Assembly: GCA_964611355.1 (NCBI GenBank)
Contig: CAZSYD010000001.1
Span: 2,745 to 66,744, forward strand
Source of the DNA: an uncultured Ignavibacteriales bacterium
Lineage (GTDB): Bacteria > Zixibacteria > MSB-5A5 > GN15 > JAAZOE01
Direction: 5' to 3'
Length of the DNA stretch: 64,000 nucleotides
In this document: positions 7,265 through 13,184 of the stretch, piece after piece
Position numbering within the stretch: the stretch's first letter is position 1
How the letters are laid out: every line of letters starts with the position of its first letter
Notes under the pieces: model-generated
The model's input: the letters and a program-made list of their open reading frames with translations, nothing else
Database searches by the model: none
What the model was told of the DNA's origin: nothing
Translations under genes and position numbers: made by a program

Positions 7265-8035
7265 ATGATAGATACCCACTGCCATATCGACTTCCGGGAT
7301 TTTGACCAAGACCGGGAAGAGGTAATCGTCCAGGCCGCCGAGTACGGCGTTGACAGGTTGATTAATATCGGCGTCGATATCCAGTCGTGCCGCCGCTCGT
7401 TTACCCTGGCGGATTCGTACGAGAATATCTATTGCACGGTCGGGATACATCCTCACGACAGTAAAACGCTGACTAATGATTTTCTGGTCGAGATGGGAAA
7501 AATGGCCGAGCACCCGAAAGTTGTCGGGATCGGCGAGATCGGGTTGGATTATTATCGTGACCTGTCGCCGCGCGATATACAAAAGAAAGCGTTTATCCGA
7601 CAGCTTGACCTGGCGGTTGATCTGAAATTACCGGTCGTGATTCATGTTCGCGAGGCGATGGAGGACGCCGTCCCGATTATTGAGAATTACGCCGGCAAGC
7701 TTCGCGGCGTCTTTCATTGTTTTCCCGGGACGATCGAGCAGGCTCGCCAGGTGGCGGCAATGGGATTTTATATTTCGGTTAATGGGATGCTGACCTACAA
7801 AAACTCAAAAATGGCGACCGTGGCGCAGCAAGCTGAGTTGGAGACGATCCTGATCGAAACCGATTGTCCCTACCTGACTCCGTCGCCGCATCGCGGCAAG
7901 AGAAACGTTCCGGCGTACGTAAAATATGTCTGCGCCAAACTGGCGGAACTGAGCGGTATGAAATTCTCCGAAATCGACAAGATCACCACTCGCAACGCTG
8001 AAAAGCTGTTTGGCCTGGTGGAGACATTCGGCTGA
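7265..8035 (+). CDS. tatD: TatD-family metal-dependent hydrolase/DNase
   Basis: N-terminal MIDTHCHIDF, and EIGLDYY and ETDCPYL motifs. Confidence 0.88.
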   Translation: MIDTHCHIDFRDFDQDREEVIVQAAEYGVDRLINIGVDIQSCRRSFTLADSYENIYCTVGIHPHDSKTLTNDFLVEMGKMAEHPKVVGIGEIGLDYYRDLSPRDIQKKAFIRQLDLAVDLKLPVVIHVREAMEDAVPIIENYAGKLRGVFHCFPGTIEQARQVAAMGFYISVNGMLTYKNSKMATVAQQAELETILIETDCPYLTPSPHRGKRNVPAYVKYVCAKLAELSGMKFSEIDKITTRNAEKLFGLVETFG

Positions 8036-8826
8036 TGATAAGGGCCAAAAAATCTCTCGGTCAGCATTTCCTTTCCGATCCTCTGATAGTCTCACAAATA
8101 ATGGAGGCCCTGGCACCGCAGGCGGGTGAGACGATACTGGAAATCGGCCCGGGCGAAGGTGTTCTGACCATGCCGCTGGTCAATTCAGGCGCCGAAATCG
8201 TGGCCGTGGAACTTGACCGCCGGCTGGCTCCGAGGTTGGAAAAGCTGTTTGGAACGCATAATAATTTCCGCGTTGTTGAAGCTGATATATTGTCGATTGA
8301 TCCGGGAAGCGTCGGGCTGGAAAATTTCGCCGTGGTGGGTAACCTTCCATATAACATCACCACGCCCGTCATGGACTGGCTATTCAAATATCATGACAAC
8401 ATCGGCCGGGCAGTGCTGATGATGCAGAAGGAAGTGGCCGAAAGGGTAACCTCGCCGCCCGGCAAAAGGGCGCGTTCGACGATATCGGTTCTCACCGAGC
8501 TTTATTACGACGGCGAGTTGTTTTGTCTCGTTCCACCGGAATCATTCAAGCCCCCACCAAAGGTTGACTCGGCCGTGGTGCGGTTTGTGCGCCATAATCG
8601 GAAATATGAAATCAGCAATCTCGCGCGCTTTGAGAAGTTTGTCCGCTTCTGTTTCGCCGGTAAACGGAAAAACCTGCTCAATAACCTTAATTCAGCTTAC
8701 CCGATCAGGCGCGAGCAGTTAAGCGAGACAATCACACAGGTATGCGGATCAAATAAAATCCGTGCAGAACAGATCGAACTGGATAGTTTTATCAGGCTTT
8801 CAGAAGAAATCTTTCGCCGGACGTAA
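8035..8826 (+). CDS. rsmA: 16S rRNA (adenine1518/1519-N6)-dimethyltransferase
   Basis: KSLGQHFL N-terminus, SAM motif ILEIGPGEGVLT, and NLPYNITTP motif. The start overlaps the tatD stop. Confidence 0.92.
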   Translation: MIRAKKSLGQHFLSDPLIVSQIMEALAPQAGETILEIGPGEGVLTMPLVNSGAEIVAVELDRRLAPRLEKLFGTHNNFRVVEADILSIDPGSVGLENFAVVGNLPYNITTPVMDWLFKYHDNIGRAVLMMQKEVAERVTSPPGKRARSTISVLTELYYDGELFCLVPPESFKPPPKVDSAVVRFVRHNRKYEISNLARFEKFVRFCFAGKRKNLLNNLNSAYPIRREQLSETITQVCGSNKIRAEQIELDSFIRLSEEIFRRT

Positions 8827-8863
8827 ACATCTAATGCCCTGTCTCCCGGATTGAGCCAAAGCG

Positions 8864-8874
8864 TCGGGTTTCTC
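8864..8874. repeat. Left copy of exact 11-bp direct repeat TCGGGTTTCTC bracketing the AT-rich cassette
   Basis: The identical 11-mer occurs at 12478-12488 in the same orientation. This copy lies between the rsmA stop (8826) and the radical SAM stop (8890). Confidence 0.5.
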
Positions 8875-8889
8875 ATTCGTTGCGCTTCA

Positions 8890-10113
8890 TTAGTCATTTT
8901 TAAGTATAGGAGACCATGCATCAGGCAACGTTTTCTTGGCCTTCTCGAAGGGCGTGTGGCGCAGTCTATATGACGATTGTTGATCGATTATTTTACGTAC
9001 TAAAGTGGGGCTATAGTAGTTAAGACTTTGTCTCACGCAAATATTCTGTCTTCGTACGTTTCTTCGAAATTGCCGCATTTGAGCATCGGTCCACTTTGGG
9101 TGGATATAATAGTCACTTATCGATTGTTCCTTCATATATGGCAGATAATTGTCAAATGTCTGATTGAGCGGCCTATATCGGCAATCAGAAATTTGAACTT
9201 TCCACTCCCAGCATTTTAACCTCTTCTTTTCCATTTCTTTAAAATCTATATCATAGTTATACAGCATGAACACAAAAATACCTTTAGAACGAAACCCTGC
9301 CTTTACCAGGATATCTATCTGCCTTTTTATTGATCGCCAAGATTTGTAATTGTGATCCCAAGCTATCCTGGGATTCTTAAAGCCAGCCTGCTTTAATAGA
9401 CAAGCTATATATGGTTTTTCAAGGAGTATTCTACCATCAAATCCCGACTGGCTTTCACATATCGGGTGGCCATTCTTTCCTCGAATTTCTATTATTTCTT
9501 CGAGTATGTTTTCAATAAAAGGATTTGCTAAGAGATTGTTATCATAGAATATAATCCTCGATGCGCAAATTTCGGTCCTAATGCTTTTCTTATAGGTAAT
9601 TTCCGGTTCGATGCGCCATACTCCACAAAAGCGGCATTTTCTGAAGCATCCCCTTGAGGTATGTATAATTTGGTAATCTATGGGATGAGGATTTTCAAGA
9701 ATGTTATAGTTTAAATGATGTTTAGAGGCATATTCTTCGGCTTGCTTATGGGTACCGATAAAAACTTCGTCACAGCCAGTGTAGTCTTTGCAGTGTTGTG
9801 GCATTAAAGAAGCATATACTCCACCCACAATGATCTTTGCATGCGGGAAAATTTTTTTGTAATGCTGAACACTCTCCTTGACATGCCGAGACCAATACGT
9901 GAATAATGATGTCACCATCACCAAGTCAGGGTTGTATCTGGTTCCCAATAACCTTCTTTCCTTGTTCCCTCTGGCTAGTTTTGTAATATGGCCAATGCTT
10001 CTATAATAGTCATGGAGTTTAAGCAAACCAATAGGAAGAAAGTTCTTGTGATTCCTACTCTTCAGAGGTACAGGAAAATTGGGTTCAATCAAGAGGATAT
10101 TCATTCTGAGCAC
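8890..10113 (-). CDS. Radical SAM enzyme with B12-binding-like N-terminal domain
   Basis: CX3CX2C motif CFRKCRFC at 9625-9648 (residues C156, C160, C163). N-terminal Rossmann-like pattern ILLIEPNFP...LPIGLLKL...DLVMVTS...IIVGG. The track start is GTG at 10113, directly after the upstream TAA; an ATG at 10104 is an alternative. Confidence 0.8.
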   Translation of the reverse strand: MLRMNILLIEPNFPVPLKSRNHKNFLPIGLLKLHDYYRSIGHITKLARGNKERRLLGTRYNPDLVMVTSLFTYWSRHVKESVQHYKKIFPHAKIIVGGVYASLMPQHCKDYTGCDEVFIGTHKQAEEYASKHHLNYNILENPHPIDYQIIHTSRGCFRKCRFCGVWRIEPEITYKKSIRTEICASRIIFYDNNLLANPFIENILEEIIEIRGKNGHPICESQSGFDGRILLEKPYIACLLKQAGFKNPRIAWDHNYKSWRSIKRQIDILVKAGFRSKGIFVFMLYNYDIDFKEMEKKRLKCWEWKVQISDCRYRPLNQTFDNYLPYMKEQSISDYYIHPKWTDAQMRQFRRNVRRQNICVRQSLNYYSPTLVRKIIDQQSSYRLRHTPFEKAKKTLPDAWSPILKND

Positions 10114-11961
10114 TTATGCATGTGGGTTTAAGTCAGGCGCACCAATGCAGTTGGATAGCCACAAAAGTCCAGCGGTTCCATCAAGAATATCTTGATCATC
10201 ACATTGTCTTATATGGCTTGTAGGGTCTCTTAACACCTTTATTTGGCTGACGCGATACTCAAAATTGCCTTTAATCTTGAAGATTGGCTCAAAGATTTCA
10301 TCCCAATTATTGCCGTAGTTAACTACACTTATTAATTCTCCAAGTCCAAGGAATTCGAATTTTTTCGCGTTCAGATCGATTTGCCTTTCTTCTAAACGCG
10401 GCTTGTTTCTGGTTTCCTTTATCCACATATCGTCCGCATCCTTTTTAGGGCCTCCAGGCACTCCCTGCTTCCACCATTTTTCGCTGCCGTAATGGCTCTT
10501 TAGCTTGTCCAAGATGAATTCGCGCAAGATACCTTCCGCAAGCCGTGCTTTATCCTCTAAGCTGGATATAAGAGGCGGTTTATCAGATGGCACTACATCC
10601 GGCAGCCCACCCATCCGTGCAGGAGAATAATTTGTCACAGATCGTTGAATCACTTGACCTATACGTGCTGCATTTTCACTCTGCGGGCCACGGCCCGTTT
10701 TGCTGCGAATATCTTTTTGCATATTTTCATTGATTTTGAGGTGTTCTATTACCGGCTTTAGAAACGTATCGCGGACTTCTCGCCTGAAATCTTGATTCCT
10801 GCCTGATTTTAGAAGCGATTCTTGTTTCGTATTAATGAAGTAGTTTAATATATCCTGGAATACCATGATAAATACTCCAAACCCATTGTTGCTAATTAAA
10901 ACGCTGCCCTTTCCTTTATTCCAATCTTCTGGCCAAAGCTCTTTTAATATTTCGTAATAGCTACCGATAATCCTCGCCGCATTATCAGGGGTTCTGGTTT
11001 CATCAGACGGATGCTTCAAATACTTCCATTGTGCATATTTCTCTATGGTGGAACAGACTGTTGTAAGACTGAGTTTGGCAGCGCCTATTGCAGGCATACT
11101 CGGTATATCAATATATTCACTCAAAGGCCCGGATTCTCTTAGCCGTTTGGCGGTTTCTGCAATTTGATACTGCAATCTCTGTTTATCGTCTGTGCTGTCG
11201 CGATAAATATCAGAATATAGGTCCCATAGTAAATTCCTAGGGACTGAGGTTTGCTTTTCGTTTATCTCTTTGAAGAGATTTGCCTGTTCCAAGGTTTCAA
11301 GGTTATCAAAAGCCAATACTGGCACCAGCATGTCTTCTTTCTTCGCCTTAGCGGCTCCGTAGAGCCTATGTTGTCCGTCAATTATCCAAGCTGATCCATA
11401 GTATTGAGGTAACGAAATCGTGCCAATTGATACATCATTTTCATAATGTTCCATTTTGTCCCATTTTATTGGCCTTGAAAAGTTAACTATTATGCTATTT
11501 GGGAAATAGCCGTCCTGCTCGTCAATAAAACGTCCTATTTCTTTTAACTTGGCGTTTCTAAGCATCCGTTGATAAACTTGAGATGCGGCTACAATTCCTG
11601 TAAGGTCACGGTGATGAACGTACGCATAGTCCAATAGCTTTTTGGCTGGGATCATGAAAGTGTAAAATGTTTGGCCCCCGATTTTGCCCCTAATGGCCGG
11701 ATACTTTAGCCCCAACTTCTTTTGTCTAATATCCTTAAAGATTACAGAATATAACTGACACTTGGCCGCAGGACCAACCTGCTTGACAAGTTTCTCGATG
11801 TATTCAATTTCGTTGGATGACCACAGAAAAAGCCGCCTGAACCCCCTCTTTCTCACATGATCAACATATTCTTGGTCTACAGGTCTCTTTTCGCGGGAGC
11901 TAATCGCAATTACAATGTTTATTTGCCCACAATTAATTCCATACTTGTCTTCAATTTCCAT
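10114..11961 (-). CDS. DGQHR-domain (DndB/ParB-Srx-like) protein fused to a C-terminal Swt1-type HEPN domain
   Basis: Literal DGQHR motif at 11365-11379 (WIIDGQHRLYG). The C-terminal roughly 145 aa read LREFILDKLKSHYGSEKWWKQGVP...VLRDPTSHIRQ, with Rx4H at 10213-10230. Confidence 0.8.
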   Translation of the reverse strand: MEIEDKYGINCGQINIVIAISSREKRPVDQEYVDHVRKRGFRRLFLWSSNEIEYIEKLVKQVGPAAKCQLYSVIFKDIRQKKLGLKYPAIRGKIGGQTFYTFMIPAKKLLDYAYVHHRDLTGIVAASQVYQRMLRNAKLKEIGRFIDEQDGYFPNSIIVNFSRPIKWDKMEHYENDVSIGTISLPQYYGSAWIIDGQHRLYGAAKAKKEDMLVPVLAFDNLETLEQANLFKEINEKQTSVPRNLLWDLYSDIYRDSTDDKQRLQYQIAETAKRLRESGPLSEYIDIPSMPAIGAAKLSLTTVCSTIEKYAQWKYLKHPSDETRTPDNAARIIGSYYEILKELWPEDWNKGKGSVLISNNGFGVFIMVFQDILNYFINTKQESLLKSGRNQDFRREVRDTFLKPVIEHLKINENMQKDIRSKTGRGPQSENAARIGQVIQRSVTNYSPARMGGLPDVVPSDKPPLISSLEDKARLAEGILREFILDKLKSHYGSEKWWKQGVPGGPKKDADDMWIKETRNKPRLEERQIDLNAKKFEFLGLGELISVVNYGNNWDEIFEPIFKIKGNFEYRVSQIKVLRDPTSHIRQCDDQDILDGTAGLLWLSNCIGAPDLNPHA

Positions 11962-11988
11962 TTTAATTTACAAACGCTTTCAAAAATA

Positions 11989-12390
11989 TTACTCCAACTT
12001 GTTTTTATCATTAATCGGTCCGTCCAATTTGGAACTTTGGCAATCAATAATAAAGATATTATCGCCTTCTCTGGCAAAAACGTCAATCTGCTTTGAATAA
12101 GTATTAAACCCTAATTTGAATCGTTTACTTTCCTTGTTCATACAAGGAAATCCAAGCTTGTAGAAAATCATCCAAACACGATCTTCAAATAACTCAGCTT
12201 CTGTCTTTTCCTTCCTTATTTTGATTCTAGTCTTAAGCCTAGGCCCTTTTTTCTCTTCCCAACCTTTTTCCATGTGGTTTGTTAGTTGATCTTGCGGCAC
12301 GGATTTCTCTCGGTACAGCTTAATCCTCTTGGAAGCGGCTTTTCTCAGCTCCTTATTATTAGTACAGAGTTCACCTTCGATTCCACGCAT
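11989..12390 (-). CDS. Small basic protein with restriction-endonuclease-like (PD-(D/E)xK-type) strand pattern
   Basis: Strong SD (aaggaggg) before the ATG. FEDRVWMIFYKLGF...QIDVFAREGDNIFIIDCQSSK resembles the helix, D-strand and (D/E/Q)xK-strand of Mrr/NucS-like folds. The expected ExK position reads DCQ. Confidence 0.5.
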   Translation of the reverse strand: MRGIEGELCTNNKELRKAASKRIKLYREKSVPQDQLTNHMEKGWEEKKGPRLKTRIKIRKEKTEAELFEDRVWMIFYKLGFPCMNKESKRFKLGFNTYSKQIDVFAREGDNIFIIDCQSSKLDGPINDKNKLE

Positions 12391-12427
12391 TAAGTCCCTC
12401 CTTTTGAAAAACTAACAATACTATAGG

Positions 12428-12456
12428 ATTATAATTCTACTCCTTTTCAGTAGCAA
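12428..12456 (-). promoter_or_regulatory. Sigma70-type promoter of the cassette operon
   Basis: On the minus strand: TTGCTA (12456-12451), a 17-nt spacer, then a perfect TATAAT (12433-12428). It lies about 38 nt upstream of the ATG at 12390. Confidence 0.5.
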
Positions 12457-12477
12457 GCCAAATTTGTAATCTATATT

Positions 12478-12578: not shown

Positions 12579-13184
12579 TTACTCGCCCGGGGCCTGGAAG
12601 TACGGGTTCTGTCCGGAGGCGTGATCGGTAACATCTACGATTTCGGTTATCTCCGGTGCCCGCGAACGAAGAATCTGTTCGATACCGTATTTCAGGGTGT
12701 GGGCCGCCGAAGCGCAGCCCTGGCAGCCGCCCCTCATCGTCAGATAAACGGTCGTTTCCTGGAGATCAACCAGTTCGACACTGCCGCCGTGAGCGGCGAT
12801 GCCGGGATTTATTTCCTCGTCGAATACCTTCCGTATCTTTTCGCGCAGTTTTTCGTCGATGGCCGGTTTTTTATTTTTGATTTCAGAAGATATCAAATTG
12901 CCGCCCGCCGATATTTTTTCGCGCATTACCGCGCCTATTTTTTTGCCGATATCCTGCCACCGGTCGTCGGTTGATTTCATCACGGTGACGATATTACCGG
13001 CAACCATTACCTTGCTGACACCGGCAACTTCAAACAGAGCCTCCAGAAGCGGCGAACCTTCGGCCATCTCCCGGCTGGTGCATTTGACCACCCCATCGTA
13101 GAGTTCGTAATCGGTTCGAAACCGGCAGACGTCCGGATCTATTTGCAGTTCGGCGGTAATATTTATGGTACCGGCGTCCTTCAT
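12579..13184 (-). CDS. Nfu/NifU-family Fe-S cluster assembly protein
   Basis: C-terminal NifU-type motif GGSVELVDL...TMRGGCQGCASAAHTLKYGIEQIL, and an N-terminal Nfu_N-like segment (LFEVAGVSKVMVAGNIVTVMK). Confidence 0.85.
   Translation of the reverse strand: MKDAGTINITAELQIDPDVCRFRTDYELYDGVVKCTSREMAEGSPLLEALFEVAGVSKVMVAGNIVTVMKSTDDRWQDIGKKIGAVMREKISAGGNLISSEIKNKKPAIDEKLREKIRKVFDEEINPGIAAHGGSVELVDLQETTVYLTMRGGCQGCASAAHTLKYGIEQILRSRAPEITEIVDVTDHASGQNPYFQAPGE

Follow-up and report, generated by a model that had tools for sequence, protein, structure and literature searches.

The 64,000-nt stretch of contig CAZSYD010000001.1 analysed here (positions 2,745 to 66,744; hereafter the window), which comes from an uncultured Ignavibacteriales bacterium, carries at 8890–10104 (−) a gene for a radical S-adenosylmethionine (SAM) enzyme placed directly downstream of a gene with DGQHR and HEPN-like domains. 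With moderate confidence we propose that this enzyme is the modification half of restriction–modification-like (R-M-like) systems and marks self DNA. The sequence-only reading of this DNA had noticed the gene pair; our analysis confirms this observation and shows it to be part of a broader pattern, which we would class as modification-based innate immunity with a radical SAM enzyme where a methylase is otherwise placed.

According to this proposal, the low-GC island in which the gene lies would encode a two-component, R-M-like defence unit. The upstream protein, about 750 amino acids (aa) long in its complete form and combining a PD-(D/E)xK-like nuclease, a DGQHR ParB-like domain and a HEPN-like domain, would provide the restriction or effector function. 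The radical SAM enzyme, drawing on SAM, a [4Fe-4S] cluster and perhaps cobalamin bound to its Rossmann domain, would put a covalent mark on the cell’s own DNA, and the mark would separate self from invader. The enzyme would hold the place taken by a Dam-like or N6/N4 DNA methyltransferase in sister systems, and the same family would serve as a portable modification gene for at least six other modules (Pbe-like HKD-helicase/CxC-ABC/DndE, GHKL, DISARM-like DrmABCE, ParB-SNF2, PglZ-HerA, and type I+HerA).

The alternation of partners around the ~750-aa DGQHR family bears on this proposal. A metagenome scan with a profile of the family gave 80 loci, 60 of which were assessable and 20 were not. Next to the DGQHR-family gene, 25 loci have a radical SAM gene of this superfamily and another 25 have a DNA methyltransferase gene, either of the D12-class N6-adenine/Dam-like type (Pfam E-values of 1e-47 to 7e-60) or of the N6_N4 type; the two never occur together. 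The chance probability of such zero overlap is 3.5e-9, uncorrected for phylogeny. When the DGQHR-family proteins are arranged in a neighbour-joining tree, the clades linked to radical SAM genes, at least four in number, are interspersed with those linked to methyltransferases; the partner type switched several times on this tree. The radical SAM proteins of loci L082 and L092 are 63–67% identical to the window protein and the rest 22–35%, with full-length homology at E = 2e-21 in L088. Homologues of the neighbouring gene without a radical SAM gene, which had been named as a sign against the pairing, do occur, yet a methyltransferase is usually there instead, which explains these cases and does not refute the pairing. 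In five loci (L121, L124, L134, L144, and L156) a longer radical SAM protein (542–553 aa) forms a set of three genes together with the DGQHR-family protein and a GHKL ATPase, and L134 additionally carries ParB-like and SNF2 genes, so that two partner types are joined in a single locus.

The second line of evidence is provided by the neighbours of the radical SAM family itself. A scan of one genome per species in 185,579 species revealed 147 relatives; 80 loci were kept, 79 of them scorable, and all genome-locus counts given below rest on them. Neighbouring open reading frames (ORFs) were clustered, and the representatives were scanned against Pfam, PADLOC, and NCBIfam. A recognisable restriction-type module lies at most three genes away in 70 of the 79 scorable loci. 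The most frequent one (28 loci) consists of PbeA (HKD plus SF2 helicase; 773 bits), a small protein, PbeC (CxC ABC ATPase; 624 bits), and PbeD (DndE-like, dnd_assoc_4). It is followed by a GHKL ATPase of the BbrUII/HgiDII restriction-enzyme family, usually joined by a 325-aa protein of unnamed function (23 loci), and by a DISARM-like set DrmA-DrmB-DrmC-DrmE (10 loci; DrmA 373 bits, DrmE_C 51 bits). Family scans recognised ParB-like plus SNF2 genes in three loci, a large protein with PglZ-like and HerA-like proteins in three (PglZ and DUF87 being among the families found), and HsdM-HsdS-x-HerA-like genes (type I+HerA) in two, while eight loci have no module or end at a contig edge. A DGQHR-HEPN neighbour occurs in only two of the 80 loci (L003 and L067). 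The linkage to DGQHR-HEPN genes is one case within a wider pattern of restriction modules, and the earlier reading has to be corrected in that the DGQHR pairing does not define the family.

Junctions between the radical SAM gene and its neighbours are tight, often with overlaps of 4–41 nt. With respect to the Pbe genes, the radical SAM gene may lie downstream with overlapping ends, be divergent or convergent, or lie upstream. This linkage survives changes of gene order, suggesting that it is functional and more than operonic. The radical SAM tree mostly follows the partner type, with occasional swaps, and the window protein groups with the DGQHR-linked proteins of L082 and L092. Two loci, L018 (10001–12900) and L069, carry two radical SAM paralogues side by side, the second one in L018 being convergent and very divergent. 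The 325-aa protein is encoded between the GHKL gene and the radical SAM gene (L038, 3821–4798, with equivalents in about 15 loci); it has no PADLOC or NCBIfam model, its sole match being a weak one to NCBIfam PP_RS20740_fam (5e-8, far below the cut-off), and it could represent a specificity or adaptor subunit.

The partners listed above are of the kind that is accompanied by a DNA modifier elsewhere: DrmMI or DrmMII in the case of DISARM, and C5 methylases in that of HgiDII-type enzymes. For the CxC-ABC/Pbe systems, the partners described are phosphorothioation genes or C5/N4 methylases (PMC10853773). In the radical SAM loci, a screen by BLAST and motifs detected no DNA methyltransferase within six genes in 61 of the 79 loci. 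In the DISARM-like operons the radical SAM gene follows DrmA-B-C-E and a methylase is absent, and a PP-loop (DndC-like) regular-expression search near the Pbe-type loci, a crude test, found nothing. The enzyme family stands next to DndB/DpdB-like, DndD/DndE-like or DrmABC restriction genes just as the known modification genes do, namely those for Dnd phosphorothioation (DndABCDE), DpdA/DpdB 7-deazaguanine insertion, DrmMI/MII, and the methylases of CxC-ABC (Pbe) systems. It shares with them its genomic position and, presumably, its role, whereas it is unrelated in fold and chemistry to the PP-loop DndC, the TGT-like DpdA, and the Rossmann-fold SAM methyltransferases. Taken together, partners that elsewhere need a DNA modifier, the one-for-one alternation with methyltransferases, and the conservation of the enzyme make DNA self-marking the most economical explanation.

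This conservation is pronounced. More than 2,200 homologues were found (best E-values of 1e-247 to 1e-147). Among the best 120, identity is never below 54% and no protein has a functional name; Bacteria and Archaea are both represented. When 1.84 billion cluster representatives were searched exhaustively, 163 clusters passed E ≤ 1e-30 and 1,001 passed E ≤ 1e-10. The 80 genome loci belong to methanogens, anaerobic methanotrophic archaea (ANME), Bathyarchaeia, Thermoplasmatota, Asgard archaea, DPANN, the candidate phyla radiation (CPR), Chloroflexota, Omnitrophota, Elusimicrobiota, Bacteroidota, and others. Carriers include Methanobrevibacter curvatus DSM 11111 (L077), M. filiformis DSM 11501 (L051), Methanococcoides sp. 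FTZ1 (L074), Koleobacter methoxysyntrophicus (P0081), and Velamenicoccus archaeovorus LiM (L066). Identity of 49–58% over so many lineages suggests a horizontally mobile gene under strong constraint. A housekeeping radical SAM family, the assignment which the sequence-only reading had set against a defence role, is ruled out by the location in a low-GC island, the patchy spread across the two domains of life, and the 147 relatives in the scan of 185,579 species.

The positions invariant throughout the superfamily comprise the three cluster cysteines, R154-G155, D191-N-N193, G224-x-D226, A251-x-D253, N286, and several Rossmann residues; in the barrel core, conservation around G224 takes in R228 as well (G224-x-D226-x-R228). 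C301 of the barrel core, C311, and C359 are conserved in the core family only and not in the distant DGQHR-linked subfamilies. C108 and C114 are the only two near-invariant cysteines of the N-terminal domain.

An alternative is that the enzyme modifies RNA (tRNA or rRNA) or a partner protein, for example by shielding host RNA from a HEPN RNase or by maturing the restriction complex. The top Foldseek match by E-value is indeed the tRNA methylthiotransferase MtaB, the partner in the window has a HEPN-like domain, which is a predicted RNase, and methylation of RNA bases by radical SAM enzymes is represented by Cfr and RlmN. We regard this as distinctly unlikely: the Pbe, GHKL, DISARM-like, and ParB-SNF2 partners, all of which are DNA-directed, have no HEPN domain, and the alternative partners of the DGQHR family are D12 and N6_N4 DNA methyltransferases. 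Nor could seven unrelated partner architectures share one protein substrate with an enzyme so conserved; identity of 49–58% over these architectures and both domains of life points instead to a common substrate, which would be DNA rather than a partner protein.

Defence islands stack unrelated systems, and TIR-LRR, NACHT, and Cas1 genes are among the other neighbours of the family, as is an N6_N4 methylase that forms a pair of its own with a NucS-like nuclease. It may be argued from such stacking that the enzyme is a co-effector, which makes an antiviral nucleotide, another small-molecule product or a signal and forms a second line of defence beside the restriction modules. Prokaryotic viperins (pVips) are established radical SAM enzymes of antiviral defence, and the very high conservation of the family fits a universal small-molecule substrate. 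A preprint reports that OpnA, the radical SAM protein of the Ophion system, likewise acts in antiviral defence (10.1101/2025.09.30.679545). We consider the co-effector role unlikely, as it leaves unexplained both the strict alternation with methyltransferases (25 versus 25 versus 0) and the fact that the partners are modules which elsewhere need a DNA-modification partner, while linkage kept through changes of gene order argues for a functional pair and not for island stacking. Besides, no PADLOC defence model fits the protein, the best match being only PDC-M51A at E = 0.14. Viperins are not known to have a B12-type N-terminal domain; OpnA has none either, and for both groups the partner genes and the inferred logic differ from those of the window enzyme. 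Hence, of the two roles offered for the gene in the sequence-only reading, modification of nucleic acids is favoured, while the viperin-like assignment was rejected for want of a model match and because of the different architecture.

Several observations weigh against a DNA-marking role and have to be kept in mind. A methyltransferase does occur within six genes in 18 of the 79 loci, although some of these represent separate R-M pairs, and the screen, which combined motif searches with BLAST against a limited number of reference sequences, is not exhaustive; motifs alone missed an N6_N4 family. In 10 of the 60 assessable DGQHR loci, which have full flanks, neither partner is present, so the DGQHR-family protein can stand alone. 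Variation in the radical SAM family is limited to short loops and the C-terminal tail with no variable domain of target-recognition size, which means that sequence specificity would come from a partner or be absent. The family is present in CPR and DPANN genomes, which are usually without cobalamin synthesis. MtaB and the non-cobalamin AprD4 are among the best structural matches, which would fit an RNA substrate or non-methyl chemistry. Relatives of the DGQHR/DUF262 group, GmrSD and SspE for example, depend on modification or sense it, and by this likeness the mark could be either protective or activating. Domains, conserved motifs, linkage, and the alternation of partners are what the data show directly; that the substrate is DNA and that the mark is protective, as well as its chemistry and the use of cobalamin, are inferred.

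Within the window, the ORF of the radical SAM gene extends over 8890–10113 (−), giving 407 aa if counted from the GTG at 10113, which directly follows the TAA (10114–10116) of the upstream ORF, and 404 aa if counted from the ATG located 9 nt further, at 10104. Both starts had been named before and both are there; the N-terminus MNILL... at the position of this ATG is common to all 25 aligned homologues, which makes 10104 the likely start. In the related DGQHR loci the gap between the genes is +8 nt (L003) or −4 nt (L067). The tight junction on which the earlier suggestion of co-translation was based is thereby conserved and fits translational coupling of the DGQHR and radical SAM genes, the coupling as such being our inference.

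The gene keeps every invariant residue of the family. Its N-terminal Rossmann domain of the B12-binding type (residues 4–131; 9721–10104, −) was recognised by Pfam PF02310 (37.4 bits at residues 59–126, above the gathering cut-off of 32.1), AlphaFold2, and Foldseek. The CX3CX2C cluster motif (C156/C160/C163) is encoded by TGC TTC AGA AAA TGC CGC TTT TGT at 9625–9648 (−), exactly where it had been placed, and is 100% conserved in 103 superfamily members. The radical SAM partial-barrel core (residues 147–311; 9181–9675, −) was delimited by AlphaFold2, Foldseek, and conserved positions, and the C-terminal basic region (residues 312–407; 8893–9180, −), with the motif DCRYRPL and C359, by invariant alignment columns. 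The AlphaFold2 model, based on a 26-sequence alignment (predicted local distance difference test, pLDDT, 84.4; predicted template modelling score, pTM, 0.82; low confidence at residues 315–337), contains a five-stranded Rossmann domain with five beta-alpha units (residues 5–131) followed by a beta/alpha barrel-like core. Together with the PF02310 match, it bears out the alternating strand/helix pattern which had been read from the first 120 or so residues. Pfam Radical_SAM (PF04055), which had been suggested as a check, remains sub-threshold (19.4 bits versus a gathering cut-off of 29.5), but the fold does match radical SAM enzymes (Foldseek, E = 1e-10), and a PF04055 match is precomputed for several close homologues.

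Foldseek comparison with the PDB gave MtaB, CysS, AprD4, and TokK at E-values of 1e-10 to 1e-7 (TMq 0.52–0.63), as well as biotin synthase and MoaA; the N-terminal domain matches corrinoid-binding domains and the N-terminal domains of CysS, TokK, AprD4, and MtaB. These relatives were found by fold comparison only, as a profile search of PDB sequences gave no match even at E ≤ 1. The class B enzymes TokK (7kdx) and CysS (9n1b) likewise have a B12-type Rossmann domain followed by a CX3CX2C barrel (E-values of 1e-10 to 1e-7, TMq 0.52–0.60). They differ from the window family in sequence (11–14% identity), in size (620–660 aa versus about 400 aa), in its own basic C-terminal region with extra cysteines, and in its context, which is defence and not antibiotic biosynthesis. 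AprD4 (6fd2), with the best TM-score of 0.63, and MtaB (9a6d), with the best E-value, combine a flavodoxin/Rossmann N-terminal domain with a radical SAM barrel at a similar size. AprD4 is a diol dehydratase which does not use cobalamin, and MtaB binds a second cluster via three N-terminal cysteines, whereas the window family has only two (C108 and C114), and a TRAM domain was not found in the window-family protein.

At the level of fold and motif, a radical SAM enzyme with a B12-type N-terminal domain is thus the correct description, and cobalamin binding is predicted only, since proteins of the AprD4 type carry this domain yet use no cobalamin. The earlier class B assignment holds for the fold of this domain but does not extend to any curated subfamily: none of the NCBIfam class B models (BchE, PhpK, HpnR, TIGR04013, and TIGR04072) scores higher than 21.7 bits, their cut-offs being 251–650, and neither NCBIfam nor PADLOC has a model for the protein.

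The adjacent gene in the window (10114–11961, −) encodes 615 aa; it is a DGQHR protein, as read earlier, with a HEPN-like region at its C-terminus. Its DGQHR (ParB/DndB-like) domain at about 10849–11697 (−), with an intact DGQHR motif at 11365–11379, scores 154.3 bits with TIGR03187 against a cut-off of 58.85. Further matches are Pfam DndB (58.7 bits), PADLOC DpdB (94 bits), and a weak one to Pfam GmrSD_N (0.013). NCBIfam DpdB (88.7 versus a cut-off of 300) and DndB (34.9 versus 328) indicate that the protein is neither of the two. Its HEPN-like region lies at about 10186–10536 (−), with an Rx4H motif (RDPTSH) at 10213–10230; at this C-terminus HEPN_Swt1 of Pfam matches at 6.6e-4 (20.4 bits, below the cut-off of 27.5) and PADLOC PDC-M34B at 4e-6, R712 and H717 of Rx4H are invariant in the ~750-aa family, and the full-length model is all-helical. 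The fusion of ParB-like DGQHR/DUF262 NTPase-type domains to nucleases and their linkage to R-M and DNA modification systems have been described (PMC3632139). The partner resembles the DUF262 (DGQHR-related) restriction enzymes of the GmrSD/SspE/BrxU type, from which it differs in having an N-terminal PD-(D/E)xK-like and a C-terminal HEPN-like domain, in the absence of a DUF1524 HNH domain, and in being paired with a modification gene. GmrSD itself is a stand-alone modification-dependent enzyme.

This ORF represents only the 3′ 615 codons of a gene of about 750 codons, a point missed in the earlier reading: the first 133 codons form a separate ORF (ORF3, 11989–12390, −). ORF3 is in the same frame as the 615-aa ORF and colinear with residues 1–134 of the ~750-aa homologues, which are encoded by a single gene and have more than 100 full-length members. 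It has no match in Pfam, NCBIfam or PADLOC. Its PD-(D/E)xK-like core includes QIDV (12079–12090) and IIDCQ (12037–12051), corresponding to the family motif QIDV...VVECKSS, in which D100 is invariant and the E/D-C-K/Q/R/M triplet varies at K, the window having DCQ. The model of a full-length family member (pLDDT 85.9) gave weak, local Foldseek matches of the N-terminal domain to Can2, Cdn1, AF1548, McrC, and Hjc (E-values of 4e-3 to 1).

The two pieces are separated by a junction with three in-frame stops (TAA, TGA, and TAA; 11962–11991, −), which break the restriction-side gene within the nuclease-like domain. Read through, the junction gives ...NKLE*YF*KRL*IKMEIED... and aligns gap-free to the homologue ...NKLEEYVGKRGDIV..., the stops standing in for E, G, and D/E codons. 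Three stops packed in 10 codons of a well-kept gene, with an ATG after them, look unlike random pseudogene decay, and the cluster may represent either functional gene fission or recent inactivation.

In the nearest relative (radical SAM proteins 79% identical), three independent assemblies (L161, 1–125; L162, 1–115; L163, 1–107) end about 100–125 nt 5′ of a truncated DGQHR gene, and the 3′ end of a gene reading like an insertion sequence (IS) transposase (..YNKNYLHSALGYRSPNQAEE..) abuts the nuclease-like domain at about residue 120. As judged from the sequence, an IS insertion appears to have removed the nuclease-like N-terminal domain there, and this domain would thus have been interrupted twice independently in the small clade of the window protein. 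A HepT-like/nucleotidyltransferase (MNT) toxin–antitoxin pair lies directly 3′ of the radical SAM gene in the same relative (L161, 3359–3986, −).

With the nuclease-like domain interrupted in this way, the restriction arm may be disabled or weakened in this genome, while the radical SAM gene is intact. The window copy may even be a decaying remnant, that is, a restriction pseudogene with an orphan radical SAM gene which has no current defence role, and we place the chance of this somewhat short of even. The three stops and the apparent IS transposase that cuts the same domain in the nearest relative speak for such decay, and it is common for R-M systems to lose the restriction gene and to keep the modification gene. 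Against it, the window copy, outside the 30-nt junction, retains 93 of the 94 columns conserved to 90% or more in the family, both pieces are intact ORFs, the ATG after the last stop makes a two-polypeptide form possible, and the radical SAM ORF has lost none of its invariant residues. Decay would concern the state of the window copy and not the role of the family, and is compatible with DNA self-marking as its function.

The three co-directional ORFs, with the radical SAM gene as the last one, form an island of 3.6 kb (8827–12470) between rsmA/ksgA (8035–8826, +) and a NifU-like gene (12579–13184, −). Its GC content is 0.40, in comparison with 0.51 and 0.50 in the flanks and 0.50 in the whole window. 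The flanks look housekeeping when their translations are read by eye, with metG, tatD, and rsmA on one side and NifU-like and Mrp/ApbC-like genes on the other. A consensus scan revealed a promoter-like site TTGCTA-17-TATAAT at 12428–12456 (−; 10 of 12 matches, a pattern match only), with an AAGGAGG ribosome-binding site between it and the ATG at 12390. A second pattern of this kind, TTGACG-17-GATAAT at 12058–12086 (−), lies inside ORF3, about 95 nt 5′ of the ATG of the 615-aa ORF, and could serve for separate expression of the downstream DGQHR piece. The window contains no tRNA genes, the listed window ORFs include no integrase, and the island borders show no meaningful direct or inverted flanking repeats. 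The data support a defence-like, horizontally acquired island. Its assignment to the Dnd or Dpd systems was rejected: equivalog scores are far below the cut-offs, and no DndA, DndC, DpdA or other dnd or dpd genes are present among its three ORFs.

In viral contigs only three close relatives were detected (41–50% identity), one of them with PbeD, and the core family is mainly cellular. Two more distant viral relatives (27–30% identical to the window protein) are located in DNA-metabolism clusters (L167, 2872–10867; L168, 2852–9278). One of these clusters combines NrdD, NrdG, an N6_N4 methylase, the radical SAM gene, and a family B polymerase (PolB) with a LAGLIDADG insert, the radical SAM gene coming right behind the methylase and ahead of PolB; the other comprises DUF5131, a DUF5906 primase/helicase, the radical SAM gene, and a weak DpdA-like ORF. 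The position of phage relatives amid DNA-metabolism genes agrees with DNA marking.

In line with the earlier statement that no pairing of a radical SAM enzyme with a DGQHR protein was known, we found none in the searchable literature, a scope from which subscription-only papers fall out, nor did this literature describe a B12-type radical SAM enzyme as a partner of Pbe, DISARM, GHKL or DGQHR modules or this family in defence. Tentatively, and with less than even confidence, we suggest in addition that the family installs a covalent, radical-made DNA mark not described before (C-methyl or other carbon-linked, on base, sugar or backbone, and beyond the reach of ordinary SAM methyltransferases), which serves as a self-label for at least seven unrelated restriction machineries in anaerobic Bacteria and Archaea and is used by the phage relatives for counter-defence.

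Such an enzyme may have fallen into a blind spot of defence screens, which are performed in aerobic E. coli or Bacillus, where an oxygen-sensitive and possibly cobalamin-needing enzyme would fail. With a size of only about 400 aa, strong conservation, and occurrence in cultured methanogens, the family lends itself to direct testing of the hypothesis. If it is true, a radical SAM enzyme would be the “M” of R-M-like immunity and would represent a new class of DNA-modifying enzyme, and its product would probably be a new epigenetic DNA mark beside methylation, phosphorothioation, and 7-deazaguanine. This would also explain how the methylase-less Pbe-like, DISARM-like, and GHKL modules spare the DNA of their hosts.

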